Virus record (IMG/VR): IMGVR_UViG_3300042450_001700
Origin: an uncultured virus (IMG/VR IMGVR_UViG_3300042450_001700)
Lineage: Duplodnaviria > Heunggongvirae > Uroviricota > Caudoviricetes
Direction: 5' to 3' (one strand)
DNA: 64,000 nucleotides
The stretch's first letter is position 1. The number at the start of each line of letters is the position of its first letter. The position numbers and the translations under genes were made by a program. The notes under the pieces are model-generated. The model was not told the origin of the DNA and made no database searches. It saw only the letters and a list, made by a program, of their open reading frames with translations. This document shows positions 30,647 through 64,000 of this stretch, one piece after another.

Positions 30647-30657
30647 TTCTCGGCTCG

Positions 30658-30984: not shown

Positions 30985-31172
30985 GATTTTTCTCTCATTC
31001 CCGAGCGGCTCGTGCCGCTCGTGTTGTTGGTGTGACTACATTCAACCAAAGATTGGAACAGAACGCAATAGCAAAACACCAGATTCTTTTTCTGACAGCG
31101 ATTTAGCCGCTAGAACTAGGGGGTTTTGCCCCAAAAGAAATATTTTGGAATCGCTCCAAAACGGTCGTTTTG
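30985..31172 (-). promoter_or_regulatory. Conserved ~185-bp cassette upstream block (4 copies)
   Basis: Homologous to 31961-32146, 33022-33208 and 33999-34180; includes TTGCGT, GTAGTCACACCAACAACACGAG and a hairpin before GAGAG. Confidence 0.75.
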
Positions 31173-31635: not shown

Positions 31636-31693
31636 GGATCCAAAAACTAGAACGAGAGCCGACCGTTTTGGTCGGCTCTCGCTCTCGCTCGTT

Positions 31694-31960
31694 CTAGCCT
31701 AGTTGATCCTCTCGTTTTGGCAGTAGTTGGAGTTCTTCCCGATCTCCGGCGAGAGCGTCACAACATTCGCACAAGTTGCGGCTGAATGATCCCGAGAACC
31801 AATCCGAAGCCGGAACCAGATCAAAATCCTTGCTTAGTTCTTCGATCCCTTTTTGGCATGCAATCGAATCGGCTTCGCTCATTCCCGAGTCATCGCCATC
31901 AGCGATCATTTGGAGGCAGTTGAGGCAAACTCGGATGGTGATGATGTCTGACAGCTTCAT
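31694..31960 (-). CDS. Cassette gene 2, acidic Zn-binding-like (88 aa)
   Basis: VCLNC...FS...CECC...GDR motif. Confidence 0.75.
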   Translation of the reverse strand: MKLSDIITIRVCLNCLQMIADGDDSGMSEADSIACQKGIEELSKDFDLVPASDWFSGSFSRNLCECCDALAGDREELQLLPKREDQLG

Positions 31961-32146
31961 TTTTTTCTCTCATTCCCGAGCGGCTCGTGCCGCTCGTGTT
32001 GTTGGTGTGACTACATCAAAGCAAACATTTTGACTATACGCAATAGCAAAATGCGAGATTCTTTTTCTGACCGGGGTTTTGCCGCTAGTTCTAGGGGTTT
32101 TCACGCCAAAAGAAATATTTTGGAATACGTCCAAAACGGACGTTTT

Positions 32147-32685
32147 GCCGCTCTCGGCTCTCTTGTGCCGCTCGTGTTCTCGTGGTTCTCGCTCTCTCGT
32201 TCTCTCGGCTCGTGTGGCGCTCGTGTGGTCGGCTCATGGCGCTCTCGCTCGTGGTTCGTCCTAGTGCCGCTCTCGTGGCTCGTGGCGCTCGTGTGTGGCT
32301 CTCTCGTGGTTCTCGTGGCGCTCTCGTGTGGCGCTCGTTCTCATGCCGCTCTCGTGGCTCTCGTGTGGCTCGTGGTTCGTGCCGCTCGTGGTTCTCGGCT
32401 CTCACCCAGCAGCGCGCTCGTGTGGCTCGTGTGGTGCCGCTCGTGTTCGTTCGTGGTTCGTGGTCGGCGCTCGTGTTCTCTGTTCGCTCTCGTGGCTCGT
32501 GTGGCGCTCTCGTGGCGCTCATGGTGCCGCTCTCGTTCGTGGTCGGCTCATGTGGCTCTCTCGTGGCTCGTGGTTGCTCGTTCGTGGTTGCTCTCGGCTC
32601 ATGGCGCTCTCGTGTTCGTTCGTGCCGCTCTCGGCTCTCTCGTGGCTCTCACCCAGCGCTCGTGGTGCCGCTCTCGGCTCGTGCC
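32147..32685. repeat. Adenine-free low-complexity tract 3
   Basis: Same unit vocabulary. Confidence 0.9.
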
Positions 32686-32736
32686 AAAAACGGCAACAAG
32701 CGCCGACCGTTTTGGTCGGCGCTCGTTGCTCGTTTT

Positions 32737-33021
32737 CTAGAACGCTTGGAACAGAATCCCGTCGCAAAATTCGACTGCAAAAGTCATATCGTTGAGAGCG
32801 TCAAGCGAGTCGAAATTTTCGCCGTAGTTCTCGTTGATCTCTTCCAAGTCTGCCGCAAACATCCATTCTTGATCGAATGCGATTGGATCGAATTCAACCC
32901 CTTGGCCTTCTTCTTCTGCCGCTTCGATAAGCTCAAACAGTGCGTAGGATGCGTTGATCGGCCAGTTGCAAAGTGTGCGCATTGTTTGGGCAAACGTGCA
33001 GGCTGTCAGTAGTTCGTACAT
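32737..33021 (-). CDS. Cassette gene 3, very acidic protein (94 aa)
   Basis: SYALFELIE...EFDPIAFDQEW...LDALNDMT; D/E-rich. Confidence 0.75.
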   Translation of the reverse strand: MYELLTACTFAQTMRTLCNWPINASYALFELIEAAEEEGQGVEFDPIAFDQEWMFAADLEEINENYGENFDSLDALNDMTFAVEFCDGILFQAF

Positions 33022-33208
33022 TTTCTTTTCTCATTTCCCGAGCAGTTGGTGCCGCTCGTGTTGTTGGTGTGACTACATCAAAGCAAAGATTTGAAAGATA
33101 CGCAATAGCAAAACACGAGATTCTTTTTTCGACCGGGGTTTTCGCCCTAGAACTAGCGGGTTTTGCACCAAAAGAAATATTTTGGAATCGCTCCAAAACG
33201 GCAGTTTT

Positions 33209-33645
33209 CGCGCTCTCGCTCGTTCTCTCGTGTTGCTCGTTCTCGGCTCTCGGCTCATGGTTCTCTCGGCTCTCGTGTGGTGCCGCTCTCGCTCTCGGCT
33301 CTCGCTCTCGGCTCGTGTGCCGCTCTCGCCCAGCAGCGCGCTCGTGTGCCGCTCTCGTGTGGTTCGTGGTCGGCTCTCGGCTCTCGCTCATGGTTGCTCT
33401 CGTGTGCCGCTCGTGTTCGTGGCAGATACCCAGCGGCGCGTGCCGCTCTCGTGGCTCGTGTTTGCTCTCGGCTCATGCCGCTCTCGTGGTTGCTCTCTCG
33501 TGGCTCTCTCGGCTCGTGGTTGCTCTCTCGCTCGTGCCGCTCATGGTCGGCTCGTGGTGCCGCTCTCGGCTCTCGTGGTCGGCTCTCGTGCCGCTCTCGT
33601 TCTCGTGGCTCTCCCAGCCGCTCGTGGCGCTCGTGTGGCGCTCGC
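33209..33645. repeat. Adenine-free low-complexity tract 4
   Basis: Same unit vocabulary. Confidence 0.9.
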
Positions 33646-33698
33646 AAAAACGAGAATGAGCGCCGACCTTTTTGGTCGGCGCTCGTGGCTCGTGTGGT

Positions 33699-33998
33699 TC
33701 AGTCGTATTCAACCTCACCCCATTGATTTGTTCGTGAATGACAGAACTCTTCAACATAGTAAGAGTTGAGATCAACGTATTTTGGTGCCGCTTCAGCCGC
33801 TTCAGCCGCTTCAGCGATTTCCATGACTAGCGCCCTAGTCGAAACTGACGGAACCGATTTGCCGCCAGCGTTTTTGGCGATTTCAGTCCACTCAGAATCG
33901 GTCAAGTACTCGGGGTTTTTGCCGATAGTGGCGATTTCTGTCGCCATCTTCTTAGCAAGCTTTGCCCGATTTGCTAGGTGTGCCGGATGTGCTTTCAT
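33699..33998 (-). CDS. Cassette gene 4, HPxHL-family copy 3
   Basis: MKAHPAHLANR...W..IA..AG...PS..T. Confidence 0.75.
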   Translation of the reverse strand: MKAHPAHLANRAKLAKKMATEIATIGKNPEYLTDSEWTEIAKNAGGKSVPSVSTRALVMEIAEAAEAAEAAPKYVDLNSYYVEEFCHSRTNQWGEVEYD

Positions 33999-34180
33999 TC
34001 TGCTCTCTCTTCCCGAGCCGCTCGGCTCGTGTTGTTGGTGTGACTACATCAAAGCAAAGATTCCACACATAAGCAATAGCAAAATGCGAGATTCTTTTTG
34101 GAACAGCGGTTTTACCCCTAGAACTAGGGGGTTTTGCACCAAAAGAAATCTTTTGGAATCAGCCCAAAACGGTCGTTTTG

Positions 34181-34528
34181 GCTCTCGGCTCGCTCTCTCA
34201 TGGTCGGCTCTCGGCTCGTGTTCTCATGGCTCTCTCATGGCGCTCTCATGGTTCTCTCTCTCTTGTGCCGCTCTCGCTCTCTCATGCCGCTCTCGTGGTC
34301 GGCTCGTGGCTCGTGGCGCTCTCTCTTGCTCTCGGCTCTCGTGTGGCGCTCTCGTGGCTCGTGTGGTTGCTCTCTGTTCTCGTGGCGCTCTCTGTTCTCT
34401 CTCGGCTCGTGTTCTCTCTCTCATGGCGCGCTCGTTCTCGTGGTCGGCTCGTGGTCGGCTCGTGGTTGCTCTCGCTCTCTCGCTCTCGGCTCTCTCATGG
34501 TCGGCTCGTGTGGCGCTCTCGGCTCATG
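34181..34528. repeat. Adenine-free low-complexity tract 5
   Basis: Same unit vocabulary. Confidence 0.9.
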
Positions 34529-34614
34529 CAAAACATCTGCCGAACTCGTGACAGAAAACCGCCACTAGCGCGCGCGGTCGATTCCAAAACGACCAACACG
34601 AAAACGCCCGCGAG

Positions 34615-34846
34615 TTATCCCCAACCACACCAACCAGACGAGCCAAAAACAGCCAAAAGTTTTCCACAGGTTTTCCACAGGTTTTCCACAACTTTTTCCA
34701 CAGAACACCCGTTCCCCAAACGAATGTTCGATCAAAGTTATCCACAAGTTATCCACAGGTTTATCCACAGAACACCTGTTCGATCCGGTTATCCCCAGAG
34801 TTATCCACAGGTTTATCCACAGGTTTATCCACAGCCTGTGGATAAC
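34615..34846 (+). repeat. DnaA-box array with LexA-like boxes (right)
   Basis: TTATCCACA x6 plus one inverted copy (34837), TTTTCCACA x4; GAAC-N4-GTTC at 34703 and 34770. Confidence 0.85.
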
Positions 34847-35068
34847 CCAGCCCAGCCCAGCCCAGCCCCAAGCGGGCGGCGGCGGGCGGGCGGCAGCGGC
34901 GGCCCAGCCAGCGCGAGTTTTCCGGGCGGCGGGCGGCGGCGGCCAGCGCGAATTTCCGGGCGGGTGGGCGGCCCAGTCCGGCCCAGTCCGGCCCCGGATA
35001 AACGGCGGCCCAGCCAGCGCGAGTTTTCTAGGGGGCGGCGGGGCGGCGGGCCAGCGCGAATTTTCTAA
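34847..35068. repeat. GC-rich repeat block
   Basis: CCCAG tandem repeats, GGGC/GGC runs and four CCAGCGCGA(G/A)TTT units. Confidence 0.8.
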
Positions 35069-35074
35069 TTCGGA

Positions 35075-35461
35075 TTACCTATAAGGCGAAAGCGTCCCCG
35101 CAGCAGGAAACCCCCGTGATAACCACCCGCAAACCAAAAGCTCAATCGACGGGCGCACAACCAGAGCCGAAACCCCGGCAGCAGCCAGATCGTCTAGCCA
35201 TTCACGTTGTTCGACGGAAAGACGACCGACTTCCCGTTTGAGTTCAAGACATGCGAAACCGAAACGCGGGTGGACGAGCGCGAGGTCGGGGAACCCTTTA
35301 GCGTCTGCGTCACCGACGAAAACGCCTGCTGAGACTTGTCGTCGTGAATCGTGGAAGTGTGCGACACGCCATCCGTATAAACGGGCGAAAGTCATTATCC
35401 GGTTTTGTAGGTCTTTCTCGGTGATCTCTCGGAATGCTTTCTCTTCATTCGTAAGTCGCAT
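35075..35461 (-). CDS. VRR-NUC domain nuclease
   Basis: TEKDLQ, GFPDL, ELK...GRLS.EQ..WL motifs. Confidence 0.85.
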   Translation of the reverse strand: MRLTNEEKAFREITEKDLQNRIMTFARLYGWRVAHFHDSRRQVSAGVFVGDADAKGFPDLALVHPRFGFACLELKREVGRLSVEQREWLDDLAAAGVSALVVRPSIELLVCGWLSRGFPAAGTLSPYR

Positions 35462-39320: not shown

Positions 39321-40595
39321 TCAGTACGGCACCTCTTCATCCCAATGGTCTTTCGGTTGTTGCCATCCCGAGTCTAGTTCCCAAACACCTTTCCAAGGCC
39401 ACGGTGTGGAACGCTCAATCACATCAGGCCAATCATTCTCCAGACGGTCGCCACGCCAACGCCCAACCTGCATGATCTCATTGCCATCTTCTTTCGATTC
39501 CAGCTTCAACCCGATCTCAGGCCACCGCAACCACAGGCTCGAACCATACGGCATCAAGTCACGAGTACCGCCTGACCCTTTCGGTGCGTGATGCTCAAGG
39601 ATCAGCCCGAACCCGTAACGGACACGCAGATCGTCAAACACAGACATCACCTCAGAAGAAGCCTGCTCATCGGATTCTCGTGCTTCCACCCGGTACGCCT
39701 TGTAGATCGGCCCCAAGCAAACGAGTGTGGGGCGCACATGGGCGATCACAGCTTCCAGTTCAGACCTGTCACGCCTTGACCGCAGATTCACACCACCGGG
39801 CCGGTGCCATAGCCATGCTCTATCAGGATCGTATTCTTCAGCAACCGAACCAACTTGTGTTCTGATCGGATTACAAACGTCGATAATCGAATCATCAGGA
39901 TTCTCAAGATCAACAATCAGCGTCCTACAAGGCGGTATCGGCGTGAACCGCAAAGGATGAATCCCCTGCGCAGCAGCAATACCCAACTGCCGCAGCAGAA
40001 CCGTCTTACCGATCCCCTCCTGAGCAACAACCATCACCCGCCACCCGACACGCATCAAACCCGGAATCACCCAAGCAGGACGCTCCGAAACAGGCCGATC
40101 CAAGAACCCGTCAATCGTCCACACATCCCCCGGCACCTCAACCACATCCGACTTATGAATATCCAGCACCGCAGCATTCAACATGTCACCAAGCTCAGAT
40201 GGATCACCGTCCTGCCCGTAAGACCGTTCCCCTATTTCCTTGCAAGCGCTAATCAGCTTCCTGTACGCAGCGCACTTCACAACCCTTGTCGCATACGCAG
40301 ACACGTTTGACACGAACCCAGCGTTCGCCACCAATGACATAATCCCCGCAGCACCCCCATAAGCGCCTTCCCCCTCAGACAGCGTGAGCGCCCCCGTAAG
40401 CGTCGTAGCGTCCACAGGCTCCCCACGCCCATACATCCCCGCAATCGTCGCATACAGCACCCTCAGACGAGGCGTGTAGAGGTCTTCAGCGGAACACAGC
40501 GGCAATACCTCACCGATAGCCTCGTTATTCAAGATCATCGCACCAACAAGCGCTTCCTCAGCCTGCTCGTCATACGGCGGCGATTGTTCCTTCAT
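39321..40595 (-). CDS. Replicative helicase (DnaB N-terminal domain plus RecA-like/AAA_25 ATPase)
   Basis: PPYDEQAEEALVGAM N-domain; Walker A EGIGKT; LILEHH..K and YGSS motifs. Confidence 0.85.
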   Translation of the reverse strand: MKEQSPPYDEQAEEALVGAMILNNEAIGEVLPLCSAEDLYTPRLRVLYATIAGMYGRGEPVDATTLTGALTLSEGEGAYGGAAGIMSLVANAGFVSNVSAYATRVVKCAAYRKLISACKEIGERSYGQDGDPSELGDMLNAAVLDIHKSDVVEVPGDVWTIDGFLDRPVSERPAWVIPGLMRVGWRVMVVAQEGIGKTVLLRQLGIAAAQGIHPLRFTPIPPCRTLIVDLENPDDSIIDVCNPIRTQVGSVAEEYDPDRAWLWHRPGGVNLRSRRDRSELEAVIAHVRPTLVCLGPIYKAYRVEARESDEQASSEVMSVFDDLRVRYGFGLILEHHAPKGSGGTRDLMPYGSSLWLRWPEIGLKLESKEDGNEIMQVGRWRGDRLENDWPDVIERSTPWPWKGVWELDSGWQQPKDHWDEEVPY

Positions 40596-42103: not shown

Positions 42104-42466
42104 TCAGATTTCTTTCTCCACATAAACCACTCTGCCGTCAATGATGACGATGCCTTCTGGCAATATCGCATGATCCAGTATCGCCCCACGCAGATCAGCT
42201 CCGAATAGGCTTGCTCCGAATAGGTGTGCGTTCGTGAGGTTCGCTCTGCGTAGGTCGGCTCTGCGTAGGTCGGCGTTATGCAGGTTTGCGCAGATGAGGT
42301 CGGCTCCGATGAGGTTCGATCCGAATAGGTCGGCGTTTGTCAGGTTCGCTCCGAACAGAACGGCTCCCATTAGGTTTGTGTCGGATAGGTCTGCCCCGTA
42401 GAGGTTCACTCCGGTTAGGTCGGCTCGTTCCATGTTGCGGACTTCGTGTCCGATGATTGTGGTCAT
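42104..42466 (-). CDS. Pentapeptide repeat protein
   Basis: A(D/N)Lxx repeats throughout. Confidence 0.9.
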   Translation of the reverse strand: MTTIIGHEVRNMERADLTGVNLYGADLSDTNLMGAVLFGANLTNADLFGSNLIGADLICANLHNADLRRADLRRANLTNAHLFGASLFGADLRGAILDHAILPEGIVIIDGRVVYVEKEI

Positions 42467-42555
42467 CCTTCGACCCATATTCTCCAGCAGAGCATTCCTA
42501 CGCTTGCGATGTTTCCTACGATTGCGATTGCTATGTGAATCTCGGTCTGTGTCAT
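42463..42555 (-). CDS. Small single-TM peptide (30 aa, leaderless)
   Basis: TTGATT-N16-TATACT-N6-ATG; MTQTEIHIAIAIVGNIASVGMLCWRIWVEG. Confidence 0.6.
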   Translation of the reverse strand: MTQTEIHIAIAIVGNIASVGMLCWRIWVEG

Positions 42556-42656
42556 ACCCCTAGTATAGTCATATGAACTACAGAATCAAGTCAATATCAA
42601 ACAAATATCAAGATTTCTTTCAGCACCAAACACCACACAACGGCTACCCTAAACAT

Positions 42657-44228
42657 GTGGAACCACTCGTAGTAATCCCATCGGAACTACTTGCACTCGC
42701 AACAGACCACGAACGCGAGCAATACCGCCTATACCTAATCGACGCAGCAGTCACCACCGACGACTGGGAAACATGGCTACTCGGAATGGCCCCCGGCTAC
42801 GCATCAGCCCCATTCGGTGACCACCACAAACAATTCTGGAACTGGGCATGGGAAGTAGAAACAGGTGAACGACCCCGACCGTTCGTCGCTATCTGGCCCC
42901 GAGGCGGCGCAAAGAGTACCAGCGCCGAGATGTGCGTCGTCGCTCTCGGCGCACGACAGAAACGCCACTACTGCCTATACGTCAGCGAAACACAAGATCA
43001 GGCAGACGACCACGTTGCCAACATCGCATCACTACTCGAAGACACCGAAATCGGATTCGCATACCCCGAACTAGGCGAACGAATGATGGGTAAGTTCGGA
43101 TCAGCAAAAGGTTGGCGGCGCAACCGAATCCGAACCGGAACCGGGTTCACCGTTGACGCTGTAGGACTTGACTCAGCATCACGAGGCATCAAACTCGAAA
43201 ACCTGCGACCCGACCTAATGGTCTTCGATGACATCGACAGCGAATCCGACGGGCCATCAGCCACAGACAAAAAGATCCGAACCATCACCCGCAAACTTCT
43301 CCCAGCGGGATCAAACGCTTGCGCTGTTATCGCCATCCAGAACAAGGTCCACGACAACTCCATCTTCGCACGACTCGCAGACGGACGAGCAGACTTTCTC
43401 CGTGACCGAATTGTGTCCGGGCCAATCCCATCAGTATGGAACCTTGAATGGGTAGAACAAGAAGGCTTGTTCAACATCGTCACAGGGCAAGCGGCATGGG
43501 AAGGCCAGCCACTCGAATCGTCACAAGCGCTCCTCAACGACATCGGACTAACAGCGTTCCTCGCAGAGTGCCAACACGCGACAGTCACGATGACCGGCGG
43601 GATGTTCGACCACATCAACTGGCCGAACCTTCATGTCACCGAAGCAGAACTACCAGTTATGAAACGCGTAGTCGTCTGGTTGGACCCTGCTGTCACCTCA
43701 AACGACCAATCAGACTGCCAAGGCATCCAATGCGATGGGCTGGGTTCCGACGGTTTGATCTACCGTCTTTGGTCATGGGAGGGGCGCACCACACCACTTG
43801 ACGCTGTGATGCGTGGAATCAGAATCGCTCTTCAATGGAACGCCGACACGCTCGGAGTTGAATCCGACCAAGGCGGCGATACATGGCAAACGGTTTACCA
43901 TCAGGCTTGCGAGAACTTGCGTGACGCAGGGGAACTTGAAGGATCAGCACCACGGTTCGCTTCAGCGAAAGCAGGCGCAGGGCATGGATCGAAGATGGCT
44001 CGTGCGCAACGGATGCTTGTCGATTACGAACGGAACCAGATCAGGCATCTCCTTGGCACACACCAAGTGTTAGAACTTGGACTCATGCGTTTCCCTAAGA
44101 TCAAACCATACGATCTTGTTGACGCAGCGTACTGGGCGTGGGCGGACATCTCGAAGAAGACGAACAGGTCGAAGTCTCGTATCGGGTCTGCGGCTAACTC
44201 AACTATCGGTGCGTTCAACTTCAACTAA
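42657..44228 (+). CDS. terL: Terminase large subunit
   Basis: WPRGGAKST Walker A, RPDLMVFDDID Walker B, WLDPA and DLVDA nuclease motifs; probable leaderless GTG 42657. Confidence 0.9.
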   Translation: MEPLVVIPSELLALATDHEREQYRLYLIDAAVTTDDWETWLLGMAPGYASAPFGDHHKQFWNWAWEVETGERPRPFVAIWPRGGAKSTSAEMCVVALGARQKRHYCLYVSETQDQADDHVANIASLLEDTEIGFAYPELGERMMGKFGSAKGWRRNRIRTGTGFTVDAVGLDSASRGIKLENLRPDLMVFDDIDSESDGPSATDKKIRTITRKLLPAGSNACAVIAIQNKVHDNSIFARLADGRADFLRDRIVSGPIPSVWNLEWVEQEGLFNIVTGQAAWEGQPLESSQALLNDIGLTAFLAECQHATVTMTGGMFDHINWPNLHVTEAELPVMKRVVVWLDPAVTSNDQSDCQGIQCDGLGSDGLIYRLWSWEGRTTPLDAVMRGIRIALQWNADTLGVESDQGGDTWQTVYHQACENLRDAGELEGSAPRFASAKAGAGHGSKMARAQRMLVDYERNQIRHLLGTHQVLELGLMRFPKIKPYDLVDAAYWAWADISKKTNRSKSRIGSAANSTIGAFNFN

Positions 44229-49688: not shown

Positions 49689-49838
49689 TGGGTGTTGAAC
49701 GGTTGGCTCGTGAGATCGTTGCGAACTCGGATGGCAAGGTGTCGTGGGAGGAAGCTTTGCGTGAAGCGTGGTGGACCACAATGGCAGGCTGGGGCGAGAT
49801 CGAAAACCCTGAACCTGTAGTTGAGGTTGAGGGTTAGG

Positions 49839-50570
49839 GTGAACCACACGACTCATAACATCGACTGCATCAACCTGCCATCACTGGGACTTGAACCAGT
49901 CCAACTTGTTTACGCTGACCCACCGTTCAACACAGGCAGAGACTTCGGAGAATGGGCCGACAACCACTGGGCCACAACGAGCGATTACATCCGGTGGCTT
50001 ACCCCACGCCTTGAAGCGTGTTGGGAGCAGCTTTCGCCTAACGGCAATCTGGTCTTGCATTTGGATTGGCGGACAGCGCACAGAGCGAAGATCGCTTTGG
50101 ACGACATCGCTGGGGAGCAGAACTTCTTGAATGAGATTGTGTGGGCGTACCGTTCTGGCGGTGCGTCGAAGCGGCATCTGTCTAGGAAGCATGACACGTT
50201 GTTGTGGTATGCGAAGGGTGATGGTTACACGTTCAATCCGCAGCGTGTGCCGTATGCGCCGGGGACTGATGTGAGCAGGCCGGGGTTTCATCCTGATGGG
50301 AAGTTGATGACTGATGTGTGGGACATCTCTTTCATTTCGACTAGCTCGCATGAGCGCACTGGGTGGCCTACGCAGAAGCCGGTGACGTTGTTGTCTCGTG
50401 TGGTTGAGTTGTTTAGCAATCGGGGTGATGTTGTGTTGGACCCGTTTTGTGGTTCTGGTACGACTGGGGTTGCGGCGAAGCGGTTGGGGCGTGGTTCGGT
50501 GTTGTTGGATGTGAACCCGGATGCGACTGCGTTGGCGGGGGAGCGTGTTTGGGGTGAAAAAGAAATCTGA
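49839..50570 (+). CDS. N6-adenine/N4-cytosine DNA methyltransferase (beta class)
   Basis: DPPF, PTQKP and VLDPFCGSGTT motifs. Confidence 0.9.
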   Translation: MNHTTHNIDCINLPSLGLEPVQLVYADPPFNTGRDFGEWADNHWATTSDYIRWLTPRLEACWEQLSPNGNLVLHLDWRTAHRAKIALDDIAGEQNFLNEIVWAYRSGGASKRHLSRKHDTLLWYAKGDGYTFNPQRVPYAPGTDVSRPGFHPDGKLMTDVWDISFISTSSHERTGWPTQKPVTLLSRVVELFSNRGDVVLDPFCGSGTTGVAAKRLGRGSVLLDVNPDATALAGERVWGEKEI

Positions 50571-51614: not shown

Positions 51615-52112
51615 CTACTCAAGTTCGGTCGAATCAGCCTCAACAGCACGACGACGAGACTCCAACTTCATAGCCAAACTCTCAATCGCAGACGAGTCAA
51701 CACCTAACGTAACCCGCATATCAACAGGGCCACCGTCAGCGCCAGTAACTTCAATCTTCGATGCGTCCCTACGCCCCCACCGTTCAGGGTTCTTGCGTTC
51801 ACGAATCCATGCGGCGGCTTGCCATTGTCCGTCTTGGGCGGATCTGCGGATGAGGGCTATGTCTGCGACTTCTGCGTCGGCTTCTGCTTTTTCTATTGCG
51901 GCTAAGAATGCTAGGTATTCTGGTGGTGCGTCGGGGTTTTCGGCTTGTTTCAACCAGTTTCGGAGTGTTTGGTTGCTTATGCCTGCGTAGCGGCAGGCTA
52001 CTTCTCGGTAGTTGCCTGCTTGGAGTGCGGTGATTATTTTGTCGCAGCGTTCTTTGTTGAACTTGGTTGGTCTGCCGGGGTGGTCGTATGAGGTTATAGG
52101 GGGCGTTGGCAT
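51615..52112 (-). CDS. terS: Terminase small subunit-like protein
   Basis: GRPTKF...ACRYAGIS..T..NW, WQAAAW..ER..PE.WGR and EVTGADGGP motifs. Confidence 0.75.
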   Translation of the reverse strand: MPTPPITSYDHPGRPTKFNKERCDKIITALQAGNYREVACRYAGISNQTLRNWLKQAENPDAPPEYLAFLAAIEKAEADAEVADIALIRRSAQDGQWQAAAWIRERKNPERWGRRDASKIEVTGADGGPVDMRVTLGVDSSAIESLAMKLESRRRAVEADSTELE

Positions 52113-52585
52113 GTGGGGCAGTTTCCTTGTCCGTGTTCTGTGTTGTCTTTTTCTGGTGGTTGGAAGGCGGCGGGGTTGTCGGTGGTTTGGAGGAGGGCTT
52201 GGAGGTCTTCGGGTGTGAAGCTTGTTGCTTCTAGGAGTTGGGTGTTGTTGTTTGAGATGTTGGTGAGCATTGTTGTGAGTTCTTTGTTGTCCCAGCGGGA
52301 GAGGTCGGAGGTGTGGTTATCGGCTATTGCGAATGCTTGTGCTTCTTCTAGGGTGAGGTTGACTGTGATGGCGGCGATGTGGTCCCAGCCGAGTTGGACG
52401 GCGGCGGCGTGGGTGTGGTTCCCTGCGAGGATTTGTCCGTCTTGGTTTACGACTAACGGTTTGAGTTGCCCGAATTGGGTGAGGCTTGCTTTGATTGCGT
52501 TGACGTTGCCGCGGCGGGGGTTGTGGTGTAGGGGTGTGAGGGTTTCGATTGGGACGAGTAGTTCTTGGAGGTCGTCTGCAATCAT
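52094..52585 (-). CDS. ParB/Srx N-terminal domain protein
   Basis: NPRRG, SL..FGQ.KP, ILAGNHT..AA and ADN motifs. Confidence 0.85.
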   Translation of the reverse strand: MIADDLQELLVPIETLTPLHHNPRRGNVNAIKASLTQFGQLKPLVVNQDGQILAGNHTHAAAVQLGWDHIAAITVNLTLEEAQAFAIADNHTSDLSRWDNKELTTMLTNISNNNTQLLEATSFTPEDLQALLQTTDNPAAFQPPEKDNTEHGQGNCPTCQRPL

Positions 52586-52640
52586 GGTTGTGATTCTACC
52601 ATACGTTTAGGCATTATTTGGGGTATGATCGGTTTTCTAT

Positions 52641-53312
52641 TTGGAGGTTGTTGTGTCGAATGTTGTTCCGCAGTTGCAGGGGTTGTGTGTTCCTGTTGAG
52701 GGGTTGAGAACGATGACTGGTAATCCGCGTCGGGGTGATGTGGATGCGGTGATGCGTTCGTTGGATGCTTTTGGTCAGCGGAAACCGATTGTTGCTCGTG
52801 AGAGTACGGGCGAGGTGATCGCTGGGAACCATACGTTTATGGCGGCGGTGAAGTTGGGTTGGTCTGAGATTGCGGTTGTGTGGGTTGATGATGATGATGC
52901 GACGGCTAAGGCGTTTGCGTTGGCTGATAATCGGACTGCCGAGTTGGGTGGTTATGATGATGAGTTGTTGGCGGGGATGATCGCTGAGGTGATGTCTGCT
53001 GACTTGGGGTTGTTGGCTGCGGCTTCGTATACGGCTGACGATTTGGATGCGTTGTTGGCGGATACTTTGCCTGTTGAGGAGTTGCCGGTTCCTGAGACTC
53101 GTAAGGCCCCGGTGAAGTTGGCTGAACGGTTTGTTGGTTTGCCTGTGAGTGTGTTGAACAGTCGTGAGGGTTGGTGGCAGGATCGGAAACGGGCGTGGAC
53201 TGATCTTGGGATTGAGTCTGAGTTGGGTCGTGATGGTAAACCGTTGACTTGGAATGTTGCTGTGCCGCAGGGTCACGGCCATCAGGCGACGGATATGGTG
53301 CAAAATGGTTGA
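52641..53312 (+). CDS. ParB/Srx domain protein carrying the N-terminal segment of a DNA methyltransferase
   Basis: NPRRG...IAGNHT...LADNRTAE; ends with LAERF..P.SVL..R.GWWQDRKRAW..LGI.SELGR. Confidence 0.8.
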   Translation: MEVVVSNVVPQLQGLCVPVEGLRTMTGNPRRGDVDAVMRSLDAFGQRKPIVARESTGEVIAGNHTFMAAVKLGWSEIAVVWVDDDDATAKAFALADNRTAELGGYDDELLAGMIAEVMSADLGLLAAASYTADDLDALLADTLPVEELPVPETRKAPVKLAERFVGLPVSVLNSREGWWQDRKRAWTDLGIESELGRDGKPLTWNVAVPQGHGHQATDMVQNG

Positions 53313-54876
53313 ACCTGTTGTTGAGGTTGAGGGTTACGGTGAGGGTTCAACTTCTTTGTTTGACCCGGTTTTGTGTGAACTGGTTTATAGGTGGTTTTGT
53401 CCACCGGGCGGTCAGGTGTTGGACCCGTTCGCCGGGGGTTCTGTTCGTGGGGTTGTTGCGTCGAAGTTGGGTCGGGAGTACACGGGGATTGACGTTCGCC
53501 CGGAGCAGGTTGAGGCGAACAGGTTGCAGGGTGAAAGGCTTTGCCGCGGGTTGTCGTTTGTGCCGGATGTCCCTGAGGATCACATGCCTGAGCTGACACC
53601 GGTTGAAACTCATGGTGACATCTGGTTGAAACGTGAGGATCATTATGTTTTTGGTGGGGTGAGGGGTGCGAAAGTTCGGACTTGTATGCTTCTGGTTGAG
53701 CGTGCGCGTGAACAAGGGGTTGGGGTTGTCACGGCTGGGTCACGGCAGTCGCCGCAGGTGAACTTTGTGGCTCAGATTGCAGCGGCGTTGGGTGTGAAGT
53801 GTCGGGCGCATGTGCCTTCTGGCGATTTGACACCGGAGCTTCTTGCGGCTCGTGGCGCTGGTTGCGAGTTGATTCAACATCAGGCGGGGTATAACACGGT
53901 GATCGTTGCGCGTGCGCGTGAGGATGCGTTGCAGTCTGGTTGGGTTGAGATTCCGTATGGGATGGAAGCGCCGGAGGCGGTTGAGTTTACGAAACCGCAG
54001 GTTGCGAATATCCCTGACGGGGTTCAGCGGATTGTGAACAGTGTCGGGTCAGGAATGACTCTTGCGGGCATCCTGTGGGGTCTAGTTGAGTCGGGGAGGG
54101 ATATTCCGGTAGTTGGTGTGTGTGTCGGTCATCCGCCGTTAGAACGCCTTGAGAGGCACGCACCACCGGGTTGGCAGGAAATGGTGACGATTGTGGACCA
54201 CCCGTCCGATTACCACGACGAGGCAGCGGTGACTGTGTTCCGTGGGGTGCAGTTGGACCCGTGGTACGAGGCGAAGTGCATTCCGACTTTGGAACCGGGT
54301 GACTTGTTATGGGTGAGCGCTATCCGACCGTCAGTTGTTCTCGCCGCAGCACCGTTACCCCAGTGGGTTGAGGGTGACGCTTCAGAGGTGGGCGAGTTGT
54401 GTCAAGGTTTAGAAGCCGATTTGTGGTTTTCTTGTCCGCCTTATGGTGATCTTGAAGTGTACTCGGATGATCCGCGTGATCTTTCAACGATGGATTACTC
54501 AACTTTTATTGAGTCATTCCGACAGATTGTTGATACGTCAACAAAACTGTTGAAGGACGACAGGTTCGCTGTTGTTGTTGTCGGTGACTTCCGTGGCCCC
54601 GACGGGAACTACCGCAACTTTGTTTCAGATACGATCAGCGCTTTCCAAGACGCAGGACTCAGCTTGTATAACGAGGCGATCCTTGTAACGAATCTTGCTT
54701 CACTGATTCTGCGTGTCGGTAAACAGTTTGATGTGTCCCGCAAGATGGGCAAGTCGCATCAGAATGTTCTTGTGTTCTTGAAGGGTGACGCACGCGCAGC
54801 GACACGCGCTTGCGGTCCGGTGCAGGCCGGTGATCTGACGGCTGAGGCCACGGAAAGCGTCCAACCGGAATCGTAG
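53305..54876 (+). CDS. DNA methyltransferase with inserted PLP-dependent (fold type II) domain
   Basis: TSLFDPVLCE...VLDPFAGGSVRG; insert LTPVE...LKRED...GAKVR...VGSGMTLAGI...DPWYEAK; then FSCPPY...K.HQNVLVF.KG. Confidence 0.85.
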   Translation: MVEPVVEVEGYGEGSTSLFDPVLCELVYRWFCPPGGQVLDPFAGGSVRGVVASKLGREYTGIDVRPEQVEANRLQGERLCRGLSFVPDVPEDHMPELTPVETHGDIWLKREDHYVFGGVRGAKVRTCMLLVERAREQGVGVVTAGSRQSPQVNFVAQIAAALGVKCRAHVPSGDLTPELLAARGAGCELIQHQAGYNTVIVARAREDALQSGWVEIPYGMEAPEAVEFTKPQVANIPDGVQRIVNSVGSGMTLAGILWGLVESGRDIPVVGVCVGHPPLERLERHAPPGWQEMVTIVDHPSDYHDEAAVTVFRGVQLDPWYEAKCIPTLEPGDLLWVSAIRPSVVLAAAPLPQWVEGDASEVGELCQGLEADLWFSCPPYGDLEVYSDDPRDLSTMDYSTFIESFRQIVDTSTKLLKDDRFAVVVVGDFRGPDGNYRNFVSDTISAFQDAGLSLYNEAILVTNLASLILRVGKQFDVSRKMGKSHQNVLVFLKGDARAATRACGPVQAGDLTAEATESVQPES

Positions 54877-54885
54877 AATGGTCGT

Positions 54886-55362
54886 ATGTCAGACCATTAC
54901 GATCCGAGAACAGCCCGACCTGCTAGGCACGTTGACCAGCGCGCACGAAACGGGCGGACAAGAGACAACGGGGGGCAGATGCTTCCCGAGCTTCCGTCGC
55001 TAGGCGAGGTGGAGCGGCGGATCATGCGGGTGGATGACGAGTTGGCTGATCTGGTTGAGCAGCATTACTCGGCGGCGGAGCAAGCGGCTGGGGCAGAAGC
55101 GGATTGGAAAAGCCATCGTGATCGGATACTGGTTGGGATCGCTGATCGGGGCGATAAGGAAGCGGCGGATATTCGTGAGGCTCGTGCGAAGCGTGCGAGG
55201 GTTGATCCGTCTGATCCTGATTCTGCGATTGGTGATGACTTGTACCGGCTATACAAGATTTTTGAGGCTCGTGAGAAGTCGATTGACCGGCATATCCGTG
55301 CTGTTCAGACGAGAGCAACAGCTTTGATGTCGGTCGCCAAGGGCATCCGTGGTGTGACTTGA
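54886..55362 (+). CDS. Hypothetical coiled-coil protein (leaderless)
   Basis: CGTCCA-N10-TAGAAT-N6-ATG. Confidence 0.7.
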   Translation: MSDHYDPRTARPARHVDQRARNGRTRDNGGQMLPELPSLGEVERRIMRVDDELADLVEQHYSAAEQAAGAEADWKSHRDRILVGIADRGDKEAADIREARAKRARVDPSDPDSAIGDDLYRLYKIFEAREKSIDRHIRAVQTRATALMSVAKGIRGVT

Positions 55363-60194: not shown

Positions 60195-60383
60195 TCATTG
60201 ACTACCAATAATCGGTCCGTACACCCCAGTTGGGACGTACAGGTATTTGAGGTCCGTGCCGACCTGAGCGAGAATCCAACCCCTGTCAGGCGGCAACGCC
60301 CCCGGCTGTTCTAGCGCACGAACACGCGCTTCCAATACTTCGATCCGGTGACCAAGATTGCGTTCATCATCACGAAAAGACAT
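60195..60383 (-). CDS. Small tail-associated coiled-coil protein
   Basis: LEARVRALE; directly after the minor tail gene. Confidence 0.6.
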   Translation of the reverse strand: MSFRDDERNLGHRIEVLEARVRALEQPGALPPDRGWILAQVGTDLKYLYVPTGVYGPIIGSQ

Positions 60384-62305
60384 CAGGTGCCAACCGTTCC
60401 AAGAGGTTGCAAGTCGATAGACACGCTACCATCAAACCCGACTTTCACAGACTTCAACCGGAAGTCCGCTACAACTTGACGGCATGAAGCACTGCTGTCA
60501 ACTCGCACTCTGATTCCCGGTATCAACTCCGGCAGCGTGATCGGCGCTGTTGGTTTCAGACCACCGCCAGAACCAGAGTCAATGTATAACTGGTCTTGCA
60601 GCAGAGCGAGTCGTGTGTTTGCCGCAGCTTGCGCAGACGCAACATCTTCGATTTCTGTTTCGCTGAAGGTTCGCACGAGGAGGCCGTAGAAGTCCGTATA
60701 AGGCGTGGTAGCAGTCGCGATGCCCGTAACGCCTTTCCCTAGAACGATCACCTGTGTGGCTTGATCGTTGCCTCTAGCGCTGATCGTGGGTGGCTGAACC
60801 CAGAACTCGTCCGTCAGAACAACGTATGGGTCAGCGGGGACTTGCTCGCCGCCGCAAAGAATGGTCCGCCCGTATGCCGAGTAGTCAATTCCTGTCTTAG
60901 CTAGTTCAGATAAAAGATCAGACGCATACTTGTAATCTGTTTGTAAATAGGTTCGTGAACCGAGGATGCCTGTCGGAGTCGTCGTGATACTAAAGTTCGC
61001 AACCGGATCAGTAGACATCGCAGAAGTAACAACAGACTCAAAAATCGTCGCAAGGTCCACGTTCACAAAGTTCAGATCGGCAGGCAACACACGCCTATCC
61101 CACCACGCGGTAAGATCAGCAGCAGTAACCTTGACCGTCCCGTAACCAAACTCCACGCCCGTCACTGGGCCGCACCACGCGTCTCGCCCGTCACGGTAAA
61201 CGATGATCTCGGTATTCCACGGGTACACTTCTTCCCAATTATCGCAGCAGGATTCTCCGAGTAGACCAGAAGTTACGCCGGTCATTTCTAGGGTTGAAGT
61301 TGCGTCAACGTCGCGGGTGAAGGAACCGGATACGGGGTTGAGTTCTGCGATGACACTTCCGCCGCCGCGGGTCATTAGTAGGACTTGTATGTCCTCGCCT
61401 ACGCCGAGTGTTGCACCGGGCAGACAGGTCGGGGTGAGAACGGATTGAAACGGTGGGATCAACACGCCCGCAACAACTTGTCCTGCGAAAGCATCTTCAG
61501 GGGGGCTATCGAAAGCGCTGAACATGGCTGTCAGCAGCACATGTACTTCTTCGACCGTAGGTATCGTGGCCGAGGTAACAACAACATCACCGGGAGCCAA
61601 CGCACTGTCGTTCGTCCAAGCATCACCAAACGGTGGAGGCCCTGAAGGAGTGAAGCTTGTCGCAGTACTAGAAATTGCAGCCGTGACCAATGGGCCGACC
61701 GTTGTTGGGCTAACCCACGGGGGAACCGCATCAGCAGAAAATGTTGCGGCACCTGTTGCCCAGTAGCCGTCGGGGTCCATCGGCAAGGTCATCGTTGTGG
61801 TTGTTTCCAAGTACATACCACCGGGAACAACGGTTGCTGTTGTCACACAGGTTGCACCGGAGAAAGACCACGAGAATGGGTTGCCGTAATCAGGTGCGAA
61901 GAAACCGTCCAAACTATTGTTGCAAACACCCGCATCGCTGGACTTGCCAAACTCAACAACCTCGCCAAACTGATTCGGCACAGACCCCGTAAAAACCTCA
62001 TACGGTTGTATGCGTACAAGTCCTTGAATGAGTTGTGTGTTGCCAAGAGAATCTTCAAGCAGACAAGTAACTGATTCGCAGCCCGGACTTGTAACAGGGC
62101 CACAAGTGTAAGCCTGCGGTAACGCATCAAACACGACGAGCGGGTTAGGAGAAAATCCTCCCCCCGAGTAAGTCCACTTGACTATCGGGTTGGTAGATGA
62201 GGTGACTGCACCTGTTACTTGTACGACAGCGCCGGGGTAACCAACCTCTGTGTAGCTGATTGAGAGTGCGGAGTAGTCAACTTGTATCTGACCGCTGATC
62301 GGCAT
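60383..62305 (-). CDS. Minor tail protein (ReqiPepy6 Gp37-like baseplate hub in the C-terminal half)
   Basis: PW..EIIVYRDG..AWCGPV, AADL.AWWDRR and LIPG motifs. Confidence 0.7.
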   Translation of the reverse strand: MPISGQIQVDYSALSISYTEVGYPGAVVQVTGAVTSSTNPIVKWTYSGGGFSPNPLVVFDALPQAYTCGPVTSPGCESVTCLLEDSLGNTQLIQGLVRIQPYEVFTGSVPNQFGEVVEFGKSSDAGVCNNSLDGFFAPDYGNPFSWSFSGATCVTTATVVPGGMYLETTTTMTLPMDPDGYWATGAATFSADAVPPWVSPTTVGPLVTAAISSTATSFTPSGPPPFGDAWTNDSALAPGDVVVTSATIPTVEEVHVLLTAMFSAFDSPPEDAFAGQVVAGVLIPPFQSVLTPTCLPGATLGVGEDIQVLLMTRGGGSVIAELNPVSGSFTRDVDATSTLEMTGVTSGLLGESCCDNWEEVYPWNTEIIVYRDGRDAWCGPVTGVEFGYGTVKVTAADLTAWWDRRVLPADLNFVNVDLATIFESVVTSAMSTDPVANFSITTTPTGILGSRTYLQTDYKYASDLLSELAKTGIDYSAYGRTILCGGEQVPADPYVVLTDEFWVQPPTISARGNDQATQVIVLGKGVTGIATATTPYTDFYGLLVRTFSETEIEDVASAQAAANTRLALLQDQLYIDSGSGGGLKPTAPITLPELIPGIRVRVDSSASCRQVVADFRLKSVKVGFDGSVSIDLQPLGTVGT

Positions 62306-62309
62306 TAGG

Positions 62310-64000
62310 TCAGCCGCCCGAGGCTAGGAACTTGCCCGCCGCACCAATCGTCACCCACGCACTATCAGACACCCGTGCATCAACCGAAATAATGAAACAC
62401 AACGTCGCGCACTGCGGCAGATCAAACCACTGAAACCCGGCGAACCCCGCCGACCCAACAATGCCCTGACCAGAGGTGTAAGTACCGCCCGCAAGTTCCA
62501 ACGAAACAATCCGGGTACGAGAGTCAATCGTCAGCGTCGAACCCGACGGGAGTTGCGAAACGGTTAGCTCCTGACACGGGACAATACATTTCCAATATTC
62601 ATCGTCTGCGATAATTCCACAAGGGCAAGGAATAGGCGGATCAAGATCAGCACGAGGATTCTCGTAAGCCGAGATTTTGAGGTTCCGCAGATCGGTAGCG
62701 CCCGCAAAAATTTGGATGAAAGAAGTCGCACTATTCCAGTCGGAAACATTTGTGTAAGACGCGCATATCTGTTTCGTTACCCACGGCTCGCACCAACAAT
62801 CATCGTCAGGAATGAACGGCAACGGTGGCGGGGTACGAACTACACCGCAGTCCGGTATGAACGAAATCGGTTCAATCTCAGGGCAGTCAATGCAGTCAGT
62901 AAAACACTTTTCATAAAGTTCAGCAGGGAACGGTTCCTCAAACACAGGGAACGTCAGATCAGAAAAGATGTACGGCAACTCAGATGCAATCGTGAACTGA
63001 ACCTTCAACGTCGTGTACCCGCACTGATCGCAGCAGGTGCCGAACTTGTCCACGACCTTCGGACCGTCTACTAGCCCTGTGCGGTGCAGGACACGACCGT
63101 AGTCCAACGGGTCAGCCTCAGCGGGTGGGCAGCACTTCAACATGAAGAAGTCACCCAACGCGCAATCAAAGCACCCAGTGGCACCGATCAGCGCTTCGTT
63201 CAACCAGTGCAGCCCGTACTCTGAACCACAACAAGTCTTTGCAAACAGGTAACCCGTTACGGTTAGTGTTCGTGGCCCCAACTTTAGTGGCCCCAAACTT
63301 CCACCATAGATGGAAGCGGGAGCTAGATCGCGTTGCACAACAGAATCAAAACCGGTTATGTCTTCAACGAACAGACCGTAGAAGTCACCTGACTCAGGCA
63401 CCTCTGGATCAAACCACGCAGGGCTATCAACGCCGCCTGTCAGATCAAGCTCATAGATTCCCGACGGCCCGGTCACTTCCCATATCCAAGTCCACCCCGT
63501 TGCAGAGATACTTACCGGGGCGATACCACTGCCGAAATCAAAGCAAACAAAACTAACTGCCGGAAACGATGCACCCACGATAGGTGTGTCCCAACGAAAC
63601 TCAACATCAACCGCGCCCGCAGGTTGAGACACAACTTGCGACGCTGTTCCTGATGGAAAGAAGTTCCAGCCCGCAGAACCAGTACCAGTCACAGATGTTG
63701 AACCCGGCAGCGGATTAGTAAAATCGTCAACCGACCACAAGTACATTCCCGAATCTGCTGAAGTCCACAAACCCGTGTCAACGGTGATGCAACTAATTCT
63801 GCAACCAACAAGAACCGCCCCCGGCACAGGTGGAACTACCGGCATCGGAACACCCGCACCCATAAAATCTGAAGCAAAAGGCAGAGGAAACGTATCGAAC
63901 AGCAAATTGAGTGAAGCAGGATTGAGACTTGAACCGGGCAGCAGCGGGATACCACCAAAGTCGCCTGCGTCGATCAAGTCGTCCGTCTGCTCAACCTCAA
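62310..64000 (-). CDS. Minor tail / distal tail protein (5' end probably beyond the window)
   Basis: SPAWFDPEVPES.DF.G, CCGSEYGL.WL and IDSRTR motifs; frame open to the window edge. Confidence 0.65.
   Translation of the reverse strand, partial: EVEQTDDLIDAGDFGGIPLLPGSSLNPASLNLLFDTFPLPFASDFMGAGVPMPVVPPVPGAVLVGCRISCITVDTGLWTSADSGMYLWSVDDFTNPLPGSTSVTGTGSAGWNFFPSGTASQVVSQPAGAVDVEFRWDTPIVGASFPAVSFVCFDFGSGIAPVSISATGWTWIWEVTGPSGIYELDLTGGVDSPAWFDPEVPESGDFYGLFVEDITGFDSVVQRDLAPASIYGGSLGPLKLGPRTLTVTGYLFAKTCCGSEYGLHWLNEALIGATGCFDCALGDFFMLKCCPPAEADPLDYGRVLHRTGLVDGPKVVDKFGTCCDQCGYTTLKVQFTIASELPYIFSDLTFPVFEEPFPAELYEKCFTDCIDCPEIEPISFIPDCGVVRTPPPLPFIPDDDCWCEPWVTKQICASYTNVSDWNSATSFIQIFAGATDLRNLKISAYENPRADLDPPIPCPCGIIADDEYWKCIVPCQELTVSQLPSGSTLTIDSRTRIVSLELAGGTYTSGQGIVGSAGFAGFQWFDLPQCATLCFIISVDARVSDSAWVTIGAAGKFLASGG

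Follow-up and report, generated by a model that had tools for sequence, protein, structure and literature searches.

What reaction should be expected of a phage protein in which a pyridoxal 5'-phosphate (PLP) enzyme is lodged within a DNA methylase? The question is raised by a locus of an uncultured tailed virus (Duplodnaviria; Heunggongvirae; Uroviricota; Caudoviricetes; IMG/VR record IMGVR_UViG_3300042450_001700). The stretch of DNA analysed, 64,000 nucleotides in length, is called the window below, and all positions refer to it. Directly downstream of a gene for a ParB-like protein, it encodes a protein of 523 amino acids (aa) in which the core of an S-adenosylmethionine (SAM)-binding methyltransferase is interrupted by a PLP domain. 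The new point is the tight linkage of these two enzyme families, which are tied to each other across hundreds of phages by insertion, terminal fusion or gene adjacency. The locus appears to be a phage DNA-modification module of the type known from ParB-terminase loci, with three parts: a ParB-like protein and two enzymes in one polypeptide. The open reading frames (ORFs) and domains of the locus are as follows.

51615-52112, minus strand: terS-like helix-turn-helix (HTH) protein, 165 aa (phrog_4102 'terminase small subunit', E 2e-34; weak HTH Pfam matches)
52094-52585, minus strand: ParB-like paralogue 1, 163 aa (ParB_N, E 1.3e-6; phrog_620, E 4.5e-35)
52641-53312, plus strand: ParB-like paralogue 2, 223 aa (phrog_723, E 1.4e-38; phrog_498, positions 38-205 of 633)
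53305-54876, plus strand: methyltransferase-like enzyme with the PLP insert, 523 aa (ATG at 53305; the longest frame opens at 53254)
53305-53544, plus strand: N-half of the methyltransferase (helix 19-31, strand 1 and motif I, strand 2 at 58-63, helix B at 66-80)
53545-54351, plus strand: inserted fold-type-II PLP domain, residues ~81-349 (Pfam, PHROGs, tblastn, Foldseek)
54352-54876, plus strand: C-half of the methyltransferase (strand 3 with GDA, strand 4 with FSCPPY, strands 5-7)

The methyltransferase core and its PLP insert

The outer enzyme is a class-I SAM-binding methyltransferase core of ~230 aa. Its motifs, DPFAGG (residues 40-45, 53422-53439) and FSCPPY (CPPY being residues 377-380, 54433-54444), are invariant in the homologue alignments, and GDA (54373-54381) lies inside a GDASE match at 54373-54387. 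Pfam recognizes only the motif-I end of N6_N4_Mtase (residues 29-71 against profile positions 176-218 of 221, E 9e-10). The 316-aa methylase family phrog_12517 is matched in two stretches flanking the PLP part (E 1.6e-90), the second of them pairing residues 348-507 with profile positions 156-315, and the protein also matches phrog_498 (E 2.8e-73). With motifs I and IV, a class-I core and a ParB gene directly upstream, the protein belongs to the ParB-linked phage DNA methylases (phrog_498 / phrog_12517). It falls outside the beta-class N6/N4 DNA methyltransferases (PF01555), where motif IV precedes motif I, since the order here is permuted: query residues 19-74 align with 220-275 of 2zie, and residues 357-429 with 27-100. 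The core has no recognizable target-recognition domain. Motif IV begins with an invariant cysteine, whereas amino-methylases have D, N or S in this position; the target atom could be something other than an exocyclic amine.

The original prediction, made from the letters of the sequence, had described DPFAGG and CPPY as separated by a fold-type-II PLP domain and had suggested modelling to set the domain boundaries. Both motifs and the domain are found where it placed them. In tblastn comparisons with 80 viral loci, insert-less relatives join query position ~80 straight to ~350, which makes the insert ~268 aa long. An AlphaFold2 model of the 523-aa enzyme built on 39 homologues (mean predicted local distance difference test, pLDDT, 87.6; predicted template-modelling score, pTM, 0.77) positions the insert in the loop that connects helix B to strand 3. 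The methyltransferase elements run as helix 19-31, strand 37-40 followed by DPFAGG, helix 47-54, strand 58-63 and helix 66-80, and resume after the PLP domain with strand 353-356 followed by GDA, strand 371-376 followed by CPPY, and the remaining sheet. The model of a natural insert-less core (pLDDT 85.7, pTM 0.85) is a plain class-I methyltransferase with the standard strand order.

The insert matches Pfam PALP at residues 102-297 (E 8e-17; 61.9 bits versus a cut-off of 35), and the best Foldseek matches of the 523-aa model are D-cysteine desulfhydrase and 1-aminocyclopropane-1-carboxylate (ACC) deaminase (7ysk, 4d8t, 1j0a, 1tzk; E 1e-13 to 1e-10, probability 1.00). The candidate Schiff-base lysine of the original prediction lies in GAKVR (residues 121-125, 53665-53679); this residue, K123, follows KR(E/D)D and aligns with the GGNK lysine of D-cysteine desulfhydrase (4d8t/7ysk). 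The phosphate loop GSGMT (residues 248-252, 54046-54060), also predicted, aligns with GSAGT of the same enzyme. Four more landmarks of the PLP domain were located.

53596-53610, plus strand: TPVET
53629-53640, plus strand: KRED
53749-53763, plus strand: SPQVN
54265-54276, plus strand: YEAK

In 29 homologues, down to 38% identity, K123, R110, D112, G121, R125, G248-S249-G250, Y321 and K324 are invariant, and at least 90% have E322; the residues of the PLP site are likewise invariant in a set of 27 stand-alone and inserted PLP sequences. The profile consensus LDPxYEAK aligns with DPVYEGK of 1f2d/1rqx and DPVYTGK of 4d8t. This DPVY(E/T)GK motif provides the tyrosine and the residue facing the pyridine nitrogen. 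Stand-alone relatives (246-283 aa, 45-59% identity) keep the same PLP residues and match end to end; thus the insert is a whole enzyme rather than a fragment. As far as sequence can tell, the inserted PLP enzyme is complete, with all cofactor-binding residues kept, and an inactive PLP domain, part of an outcome named beforehand as fatal to the predicted modification, is not what the conservation indicates.

Among phage protein families, the insert matches phrog_3650 (E 1.3e-29) and phrog_7093 (E 3.6e-12). Gp023 of Klebsiella phage May, an Ackermannviridae phage, belongs to the former (E 4e-233); we assume that it is the counterpart of ViI gp226. M6 gp52 belongs to the latter (E 2e-159), as do all four PLP genes neighbouring insert-less methylases in loci L020, L026, L061 and L074 (E 5e-37 to 8e-56). 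K123 aligns with K36 of M6 gp52. According to Lee et al. 2021 (PMC8989533), K36 is the aldimine lysine of gp52, ViI gp226 was modelled on 1j0a, and M6 gp52 and ViI gp226 are PLP-dependent decarboxylases of C-alpha-glycinyl-T and O-serinyl-T in DNA.

The ParB partner and the linkage of the two families

Residues ~150-200 of the ParB ORF 52641-53312 form a conserved linker (LPVSVLNSREGWWQDRKRAWTDLGIESELGRDG; consensus FxxPPFSVLNxRxGxWQxRKRxWxxLGIxSExGR) that is found between ParB and the methylase core in fused homologues. Single-chain proteins with this linker include gp70 of Pseudanabaena phage Pam4 (829 aa) and gp7 of Erythrobacter phage ZS04 (812 aa). The usual N-terminal segment of the methylase thus ends the ParB ORF in another frame, as had been read from the sequence: start and stop overlap by 8 nucleotides, ATGGTTGA (53305-53312, plus strand), and the second ORF is in the +1 frame. 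The overlap is conserved with wobble changes, as ATGGGTGA in one relative (L004, 96% identity) and ATGGCTGA in another (L005, 92%). A run of four A's lies beside the junction in the window; it is missing in L005. In four other metagenome runs from lakes, contigs extend across the junction with 0 gaps and no other letter. Since the overlap recurs in both relatives and in the contigs of these four runs, the ParB/methylase split is natural and not a sequencing error, which removes a doubt that had been raised beforehand.

Both PF00291 and PF01555 are found in 119 of the 120 best database homologues, which occur in split-length (~520-590 aa) and ParB-fused (~720-900 aa) forms. The split with an 8-nucleotide overlap is also seen, with no PLP insert, in Microcystis phage Mae-JY30. 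The overlap ATGGTTGA probably couples translation of the ParB and enzyme ORFs. No known slippery motif was seen at ...CAAAATGGTTGA, and re-initiation would fit the conserved ATG-within-stop overlap better than a programmed frameshift, although a fused product may also be made.

The other ParB-like gene is divergent from the modification genes and overlaps the start of the terS-like gene by 19 nucleotides, which, together with the phrog_4102 match of the latter, bears out the predicted coupling to terS. The expected terminase neighbourhood is retained in part. In relatives the gene usually stands directly upstream of terminase and portal genes, and a large terminase (Pfam) was found within 4.5 kb downstream in eight of the 14 related loci scanned. 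In the window the terS-like gene adjoins the module, but the large terminase gene lies at a distance of 8 kb. At the position where many fused relatives carry GHGR, which in ParB-CTPases is the nucleotide-binding motif with its arginine (PMC12704722), both ParB paralogues have GNHT, and they may lack canonical nucleoside triphosphate binding.

Three sets of 80 loci were compared for the association of the two enzymes. In the PLP-centred viral set, the PLP domain is inserted in the methylase in 59 loci and adjacent or fused to it in 12, and nine have no methylase within 4 kb; thus it lies inside or beside this methyltransferase family in 71 of the 80. Of the 59 loci with the insert, nine are truncated at a contig end or interrupted by another insertion. 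The methylase-centred viral set contains 17 inserts, seven separate adjacent PLP genes, usually overlapping the methylase stop by 4 nucleotides, and 56 loci with no partner in the flanks. The corresponding numbers for the 80 best prophage loci are three inserts, 17 adjacent or C-terminally fused PLP domains and 60 without a partner. The dependence is therefore one-sided: the PLP enzyme almost always occurs with the methylase, whereas the methylase often occurs without the PLP enzyme. This fits a PLP step that is downstream of, or fed by, the methylase.

At E<=1e-30, 371 clusters (50% identity) with this PLP domain were found in a library of 1.84 billion representative proteins. Among the best 150 of the 371, 124 are at least 480 aa long with the PLP domain internal, and 12 are shorter than 300 aa. 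Phages from lakes, the sea, soil and the gut carry the module, as do prophages of many phyla. The order of its parts may change, as in P0316 (PLP-ParB-methylase), and in Staphylococcus phage Alsa_1 the phrog_12517 methylase and a small PLP gene are 1 kb apart. In a FastTree phylogeny of the methylase core (152 leaves, ~215 columns, insert columns removed) the insert-bearing genes are scattered, with 13 parsimony changes; as the core is short and highly conserved, no claim of single or multiple origin is attached to this number.

Several relatives carry additional domains. In a prophage of a Loktanella metagenome-assembled genome (L089:3867-7421), one 1185-aa ORF contains ParB, a complete insert-less methylase, a PLP domain 53% identical to the insert of the window, and ~300 further aa. 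The last 300 aa match no Pfam family; the ESM atlas places them with Amidoligase_2 phage clusters (score 0.96), which is a lead only. P0208 and P0311 (1175 and 1249 aa) end in an Asp/Asn beta-hydroxylase-type 2-oxoglutarate oxygenase domain (E 9e-12 and 2e-10). Among 20 long homologues, an Asp/Asn-hydroxylase-type oxygenase was recognized in two, a class-I methyltransferase in one and a weak LPG_synthase_C match in one. Inteins with LAGLIDADG domains occur in P0037, P0197 and L241, and the alignment of L241 breaks near query 376-383, which is the FSCPPY motif. The ShiLan insertion (PMC11855218), an out-of-frame HNH element, was judged unrelated.

Two viral contigs with no methylase nearby (L168, L226) have a stand-alone PLP gene together with two genes of the LPG_synthase_C type (aminoacyl-tRNA-dependent transferase); in L168 they are joined by a class-I methyltransferase and a nucleotidyl transferase. 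The arrangement seems to be a further uncharacterized hypermodification cluster. In L014:3212-8195, the PLP-bearing methylase is flanked by two ParB-like genes, and a third ParB_N gene precedes. It is also preceded by a TET-associated glycosyltransferase (PF20691, E 1.6e-31); no TET/JBP gene was recognized in the stretch of L014 scanned.

Proposed function and its alternatives

The uncharacterized DNA modification of the original prediction is supported by the kept catalytic residues, by the kinship of the PLP family, by the coupling in 71 of 80 loci, by the terminase and portal genes that usually follow in relatives, and by the natural split from ParB. Some form of PLP-dependent DNA hypermodification is the probable product of the module. 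To act, a PLP enzyme requires a carboxylate with a primary amine beside it, and the question is where the locus could find one. A Pfam scan of the 92 window ORFs revealed no thymidylate-synthase-like gene, 5-hydroxymethyldeoxyuridine (5-hmdU) kinase, aGPT-Pplase or TET/JBP. A PHROGs scan of the 30 larger ORFs likewise found no gene of the 5-hmdU route, and the surroundings of the gene in 14 related loci, also scanned, contain no other adduct-forming enzyme that recurs. Because genes for 5-hmdU, the kinase and an amino-acid:DNA transferase are missing here, the methionine part of SAM would be the only amino-acid moiety in reach. It is also the only amine and carboxylate that a methyltransferase fold handles; for this reason, aminocarboxypropyl transfer followed by decarboxylation is proposed.

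The two halves of the enzyme would act in sequence on phage DNA. The methyltransferase-like half would move the 3-amino-3-carboxypropyl group of SAM onto a flipped base, releasing 5'-methylthioadenosine (MTA), and the PLP half would then decarboxylate the adduct to a cationic 3-aminopropyl group. Alternatively, the PLP half might make decarboxy-SAM, from which the core would transfer the aminopropyl group. The role of the ParB-like protein would be to bring the enzyme onto phage DNA, or to keep it there, at about the time of packaging. In relatives the chain might be extended by the fused amidoligase, oxygenase or aminoacyl-transferase domains; such tailoring domains (amidoligase-like, oxygenase, LPG_synthase_C) would need an amine or an alkyl chain. 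A SAM-derived aminopropyl route on DNA, suggested by analogy, is a tentative proposal somewhat short of an even chance. That this is the first enzyme family to aminopropylate DNA, by aminocarboxypropyl transfer from SAM and built-in PLP decarboxylation in one ParB-guided polypeptide, is given a probability of roughly 0.35.

Several observations weigh against the aminopropyl route. Motifs I and IV are identical whether a core contains the insert, has a PLP neighbour or lacks PLP altogether, and no residue discriminates the three groups at an 80%/20% threshold. The best-ranked columns of this comparison lie at the insert edges or in variable surface positions; L018, L031 and L049, whose extracted stretch has an in-frame stop, had been dropped from it, as had loci in which one of the two halves was missing. 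As the cores with and without PLP are indistinguishable, there is no sign of a switch from methyl to aminocarboxypropyl transfer. The nearest folds of the insert-less core in Foldseek are TehB-like, Trm14/TrmN/aTrm11, PrmA and PrmC (template-modelling score 0.55-0.59), and no aminocarboxypropyl transferase is among the PDB sequence matches or the Foldseek rows listed. Most members of the methylase family have no PLP partner in the DNA examined. By the known class-I topology, the loop between helix B and strand 3 faces the side of the sheet away from SAM, so that an active site shared by PLP and SAM is unlikely. On the PLP side, the closest solved relatives are lyases and deaminases rather than decarboxylases, the YE pair of ACC-deaminase type is kept, and M6 gp52 is only remotely similar (25% identity, pairwise E 5e-5).

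The indistinguishable cores, the many family members without PLP, the ordinary methyltransferases among the nearest folds and the distance of the insertion loop from the SAM site, as far as topology indicates it, speak at the same time for a plain DNA methylase (N6-methyladenine or N4-methylcytosine, probably with little sequence preference and ParB-guided) with a separate PLP task. The PLP enzyme would then act on a small molecule or on an adduct made by host or unrecognized phage enzymes, and the tether would serve for co-localization or dimerization only. However, a methyl group offers a PLP enzyme no substrate, no other adduct-forming enzyme is seen in the window or recurs in the related loci scanned, and the PLP subfamily accompanies this very methylase in 71 of the 80 loci, in four arrangements. 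A plain methylase is rated only a little below the aminopropyl route.

Alternatively, the protein could consume SAM as a counter-defence. The core would present SAM and the PLP domain would destroy it, for example by gamma-elimination to MTA, 2-oxobutyrate and ammonia, starving SAM-dependent restriction or BREX-type systems in the manner of phage SAM lyases. ACC derives from SAM, and fold-type-II enzymes can perform gamma-eliminations (threonine synthase); both the ACC-deaminase-like PLP domain with its YE pair and the lack of a target-recognition domain in the core would suit such a role. However, the base-binding FSCPPY motif and the ParB partner are invariant, although destruction of SAM needs neither of them. 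Where the PLP enzyme stands alone it is a protein of its own, and the site of insertion probably lies at some distance from SAM. The kinship with DNA-adduct decarboxylases and the fused tailoring enzymes of relatives also speak against it, and loss of SAM as the purpose of the module is improbable.

A degenerate PLP domain, with catalysis lost and the fold retained as a DNA-binding or dimerization module in place of the target-recognition domain, would suit a core that has no such domain of its own and an insert between motifs I and IV, where alpha-class methylases carry it. This is very improbable, as the Schiff-base lysine, the phosphate loop and YEAK are invariant or nearly so in both sets of 29 and 27 sequences, and stand-alone orthologues of 250-280 aa with 45-59% identity keep the same residues. 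An assembly or sequencing artefact, be it the split or the whole chimera, at which the close fused relative P0011 (741 aa, 73% identity) and the four-A run beside the junction might hint, can be dismissed, being contradicted by the overlap kept in two relatives, by the gap-free contigs of four other runs and by the two domains in 119 of the 120 best homologues, many of split length.

The aminopropyl reading would have consequences beyond this phage. Through hypermodified DNA, phages overcome restriction and CRISPR systems, and the pathways that make it are a source of enzymes for biotechnology. To our knowledge, every known amino-acid-derived phage DNA hypermodification starts from 5-hydroxymethyl-pyrimidines. 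If the reading is true, one or two genes would suffice for a compact and self-contained route that works without the 5-hydroxymethyl-pyrimidine machinery, and several hundred phage protein clusters would share a base chemistry and a way of using SAM that are both new for DNA. It also bears on what the very large and unusually conserved family of ParB-linked methylases transfers; in the literature covered, no experimental report of methyl transfer by this family (phrog_498 / phrog_12517) was found.

Genome setting and known systems

By its PHROGs matches, the window is the genome of a tailed phage. The following genes mark its remaining parts.

2344-4338: major head protein (PHROGs)
10063-12060: portal (PHROGs)
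39321-40595: replicative helicase (PHROGs)
42573-44228: large terminase (phrog_38)
49821-50570, plus strand: ordinary beta-class N6/N4 DNA methyltransferase, 249 aa (N6_N4_Mtase, full profile, E 1.2e-49)
60383-63977: tail proteins (PHROGs)

The methyltransferase at 49821-50570 is a separate gene 2 kb upstream, mentioned as context only, with no link to the module shown. A pentapeptide-repeat protein (42104-42478, minus strand; PF00805, E 6e-25) is encoded directly upstream of, and divergently from, the large terminase; pentapeptide-repeat proteins can mimic DNA, and this is a possible anti-defence gene. Three glycosyltransferase genes in series (131-2258, minus strand; Gly_transf_sug, Glyco_transf_7C-like, GT group 1 / GT4-conflict) follow the major head gene immediately downstream and may be involved in virion glycosylation. 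With a WhiB-type regulator (4768-5019) and an Rpf-like transglycosylase encoded, the host may be an actinobacterium. The region 52600-54900 is present, at at least 70% of sampled words, in 18 lake-water metagenome runs of 2020-2024. Two soil RNA runs contain 9-12% of the sampled words, which was counted as no evidence for expression. Megablast with the 49-58 kb region found no match among GenBank phages.

The coding strands are strongly G+T rich throughout the genome. The third codon positions of the 523-aa gene (53305-54873) contain 205 G, 171 T, 88 C and 59 A; at 52-54 kb the GC skew is +0.40 and the AT skew -0.36, and the signs reverse where genes are on the minus strand. As a result of this composition, long spurious antisense ORFs stay open, for example 52614-53303 on the minus strand. 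A region of ~5 kb (29600-35100) is nearly A-free on the plus strand (AT skew -0.40 to -0.48, GC 0.57-0.59). It is made of degenerate short repeats (GCTCTCGTG, GCTCGTGCC and similar; 51 rows of TRF output), because of which all three plus frames are open across it; its ORFs have no Pfam or PHROG match. Modules of roughly 1-kb period are seen inside. The region is flanked by a cluster of (A)GTTATCCACAG at 29634-29811 and one of GTTTTCCACAG / GGTTATCCACAG at 34659-34834, similar in sequence to the DnaA-box consensus TTATCCACA. A replication origin, an iteron field and a non-coding array are possible identities of the region.

In the literature covered, which did not include Iyer et al. 2013, reportedly the source of the ParB-terminase-locus concept, no description was found of a PLP enzyme as an insert in this methylase family or as its partner. 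GenBank names for three phage examples are 'pyridoxal-phosphate dependent enzyme', 'DNA modification methylase' and 'DNA methyltransferase'. Tblastn of the insert against GenBank phages gave 280 records, mostly of Salmonella (139), Vibrio (61), Klebsiella (36) and Escherichia (29) phages; the Klebsiella and Escherichia records listed are ~155-161 kb, as is phage May. The closest stand-alone homologue among GenBank phages is MONT_41 of Glutamicibacter phage Montesquieu, located between an aGPT-Pplase2 gene and kinase genes.

M6 gp52 and ViI gp226 are, like the insert, phage-encoded enzymes of the fold-type-II ACC-deaminase-like PLP family linked with DNA modification genes. They differ in that the enzyme here is inserted in, or adjacent to, a SAM methyltransferase-like protein, and the genes that accompany them (5-hmdU kinase, aGPT-Pplase, deoxyuridine monophosphate hydroxymethylase) were not found in the window. 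ACC deaminase and D-cysteine desulfhydrase (1f2d, 1rqx, 1j0a, 4d8t, 7ysk), the best sequence and fold matches of the insert, share with it KR(E/D)D, the GGNK lysine (here G(A/G)K), the GSxGT loop and DPVYEGK (here DPxYEAK). The insert differs from them in identity (~21%), length (~265 versus ~330 aa) and in having SPQ instead of QSN(H/Q). Its place within a DNA enzyme makes a role as a small-molecule deaminase unlikely.

Methylases linked to ParB and located beside terminase genes have been described before (Iyer et al. 2016, PMC4738411; Kaljevic et al. 2025, PMC12704722). The present locus has in common with them a ParB domain fused or coupled to a small N6/N4-type methylase, terminase genes close by in most relatives, and a predicted modification of phage DNA around packaging. 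The added PLP enzyme, the motif IV CPPY and the order I then IV set the subset considered here apart; PLP or pyridoxal is not mentioned in Kaljevic et al. 2025 (PMC12704722) or in the ParB passages of Iyer et al. 2016 (PMC4738411). ParB-like proteins activate phage thymine dioxygenases (PMC13229309), and the module adds a case to such proteins as partners of phage DNA-modifying enzymes.

The proposed chemistry has its closest precedent in microcin C, where MccD, of SAM-dependent methyltransferase type, transfers an aminocarboxypropyl group and the N-terminal PLP domain of MccE decarboxylates (PMC10491745). SAM as the aminocarboxypropyl donor, a PLP decarboxylase that yields aminopropyl, and even the open order of the steps are common to both; the acceptor, however, is the phosphoramidate of a peptide-nucleotide rather than DNA. 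MccD (5FCD) is not among the sequence or fold matches, and the likeness is one of working logic rather than of shown homology. CmoX of Synechococcus phage S-B43 (PMC12783734) is a C5-cytosine carboxymethyltransferase of another family, with another donor and no PLP domain. It resembles the proposed reaction in that an enzyme of methyltransferase type places a non-methyl group on a DNA base as a handle for hypermodification.

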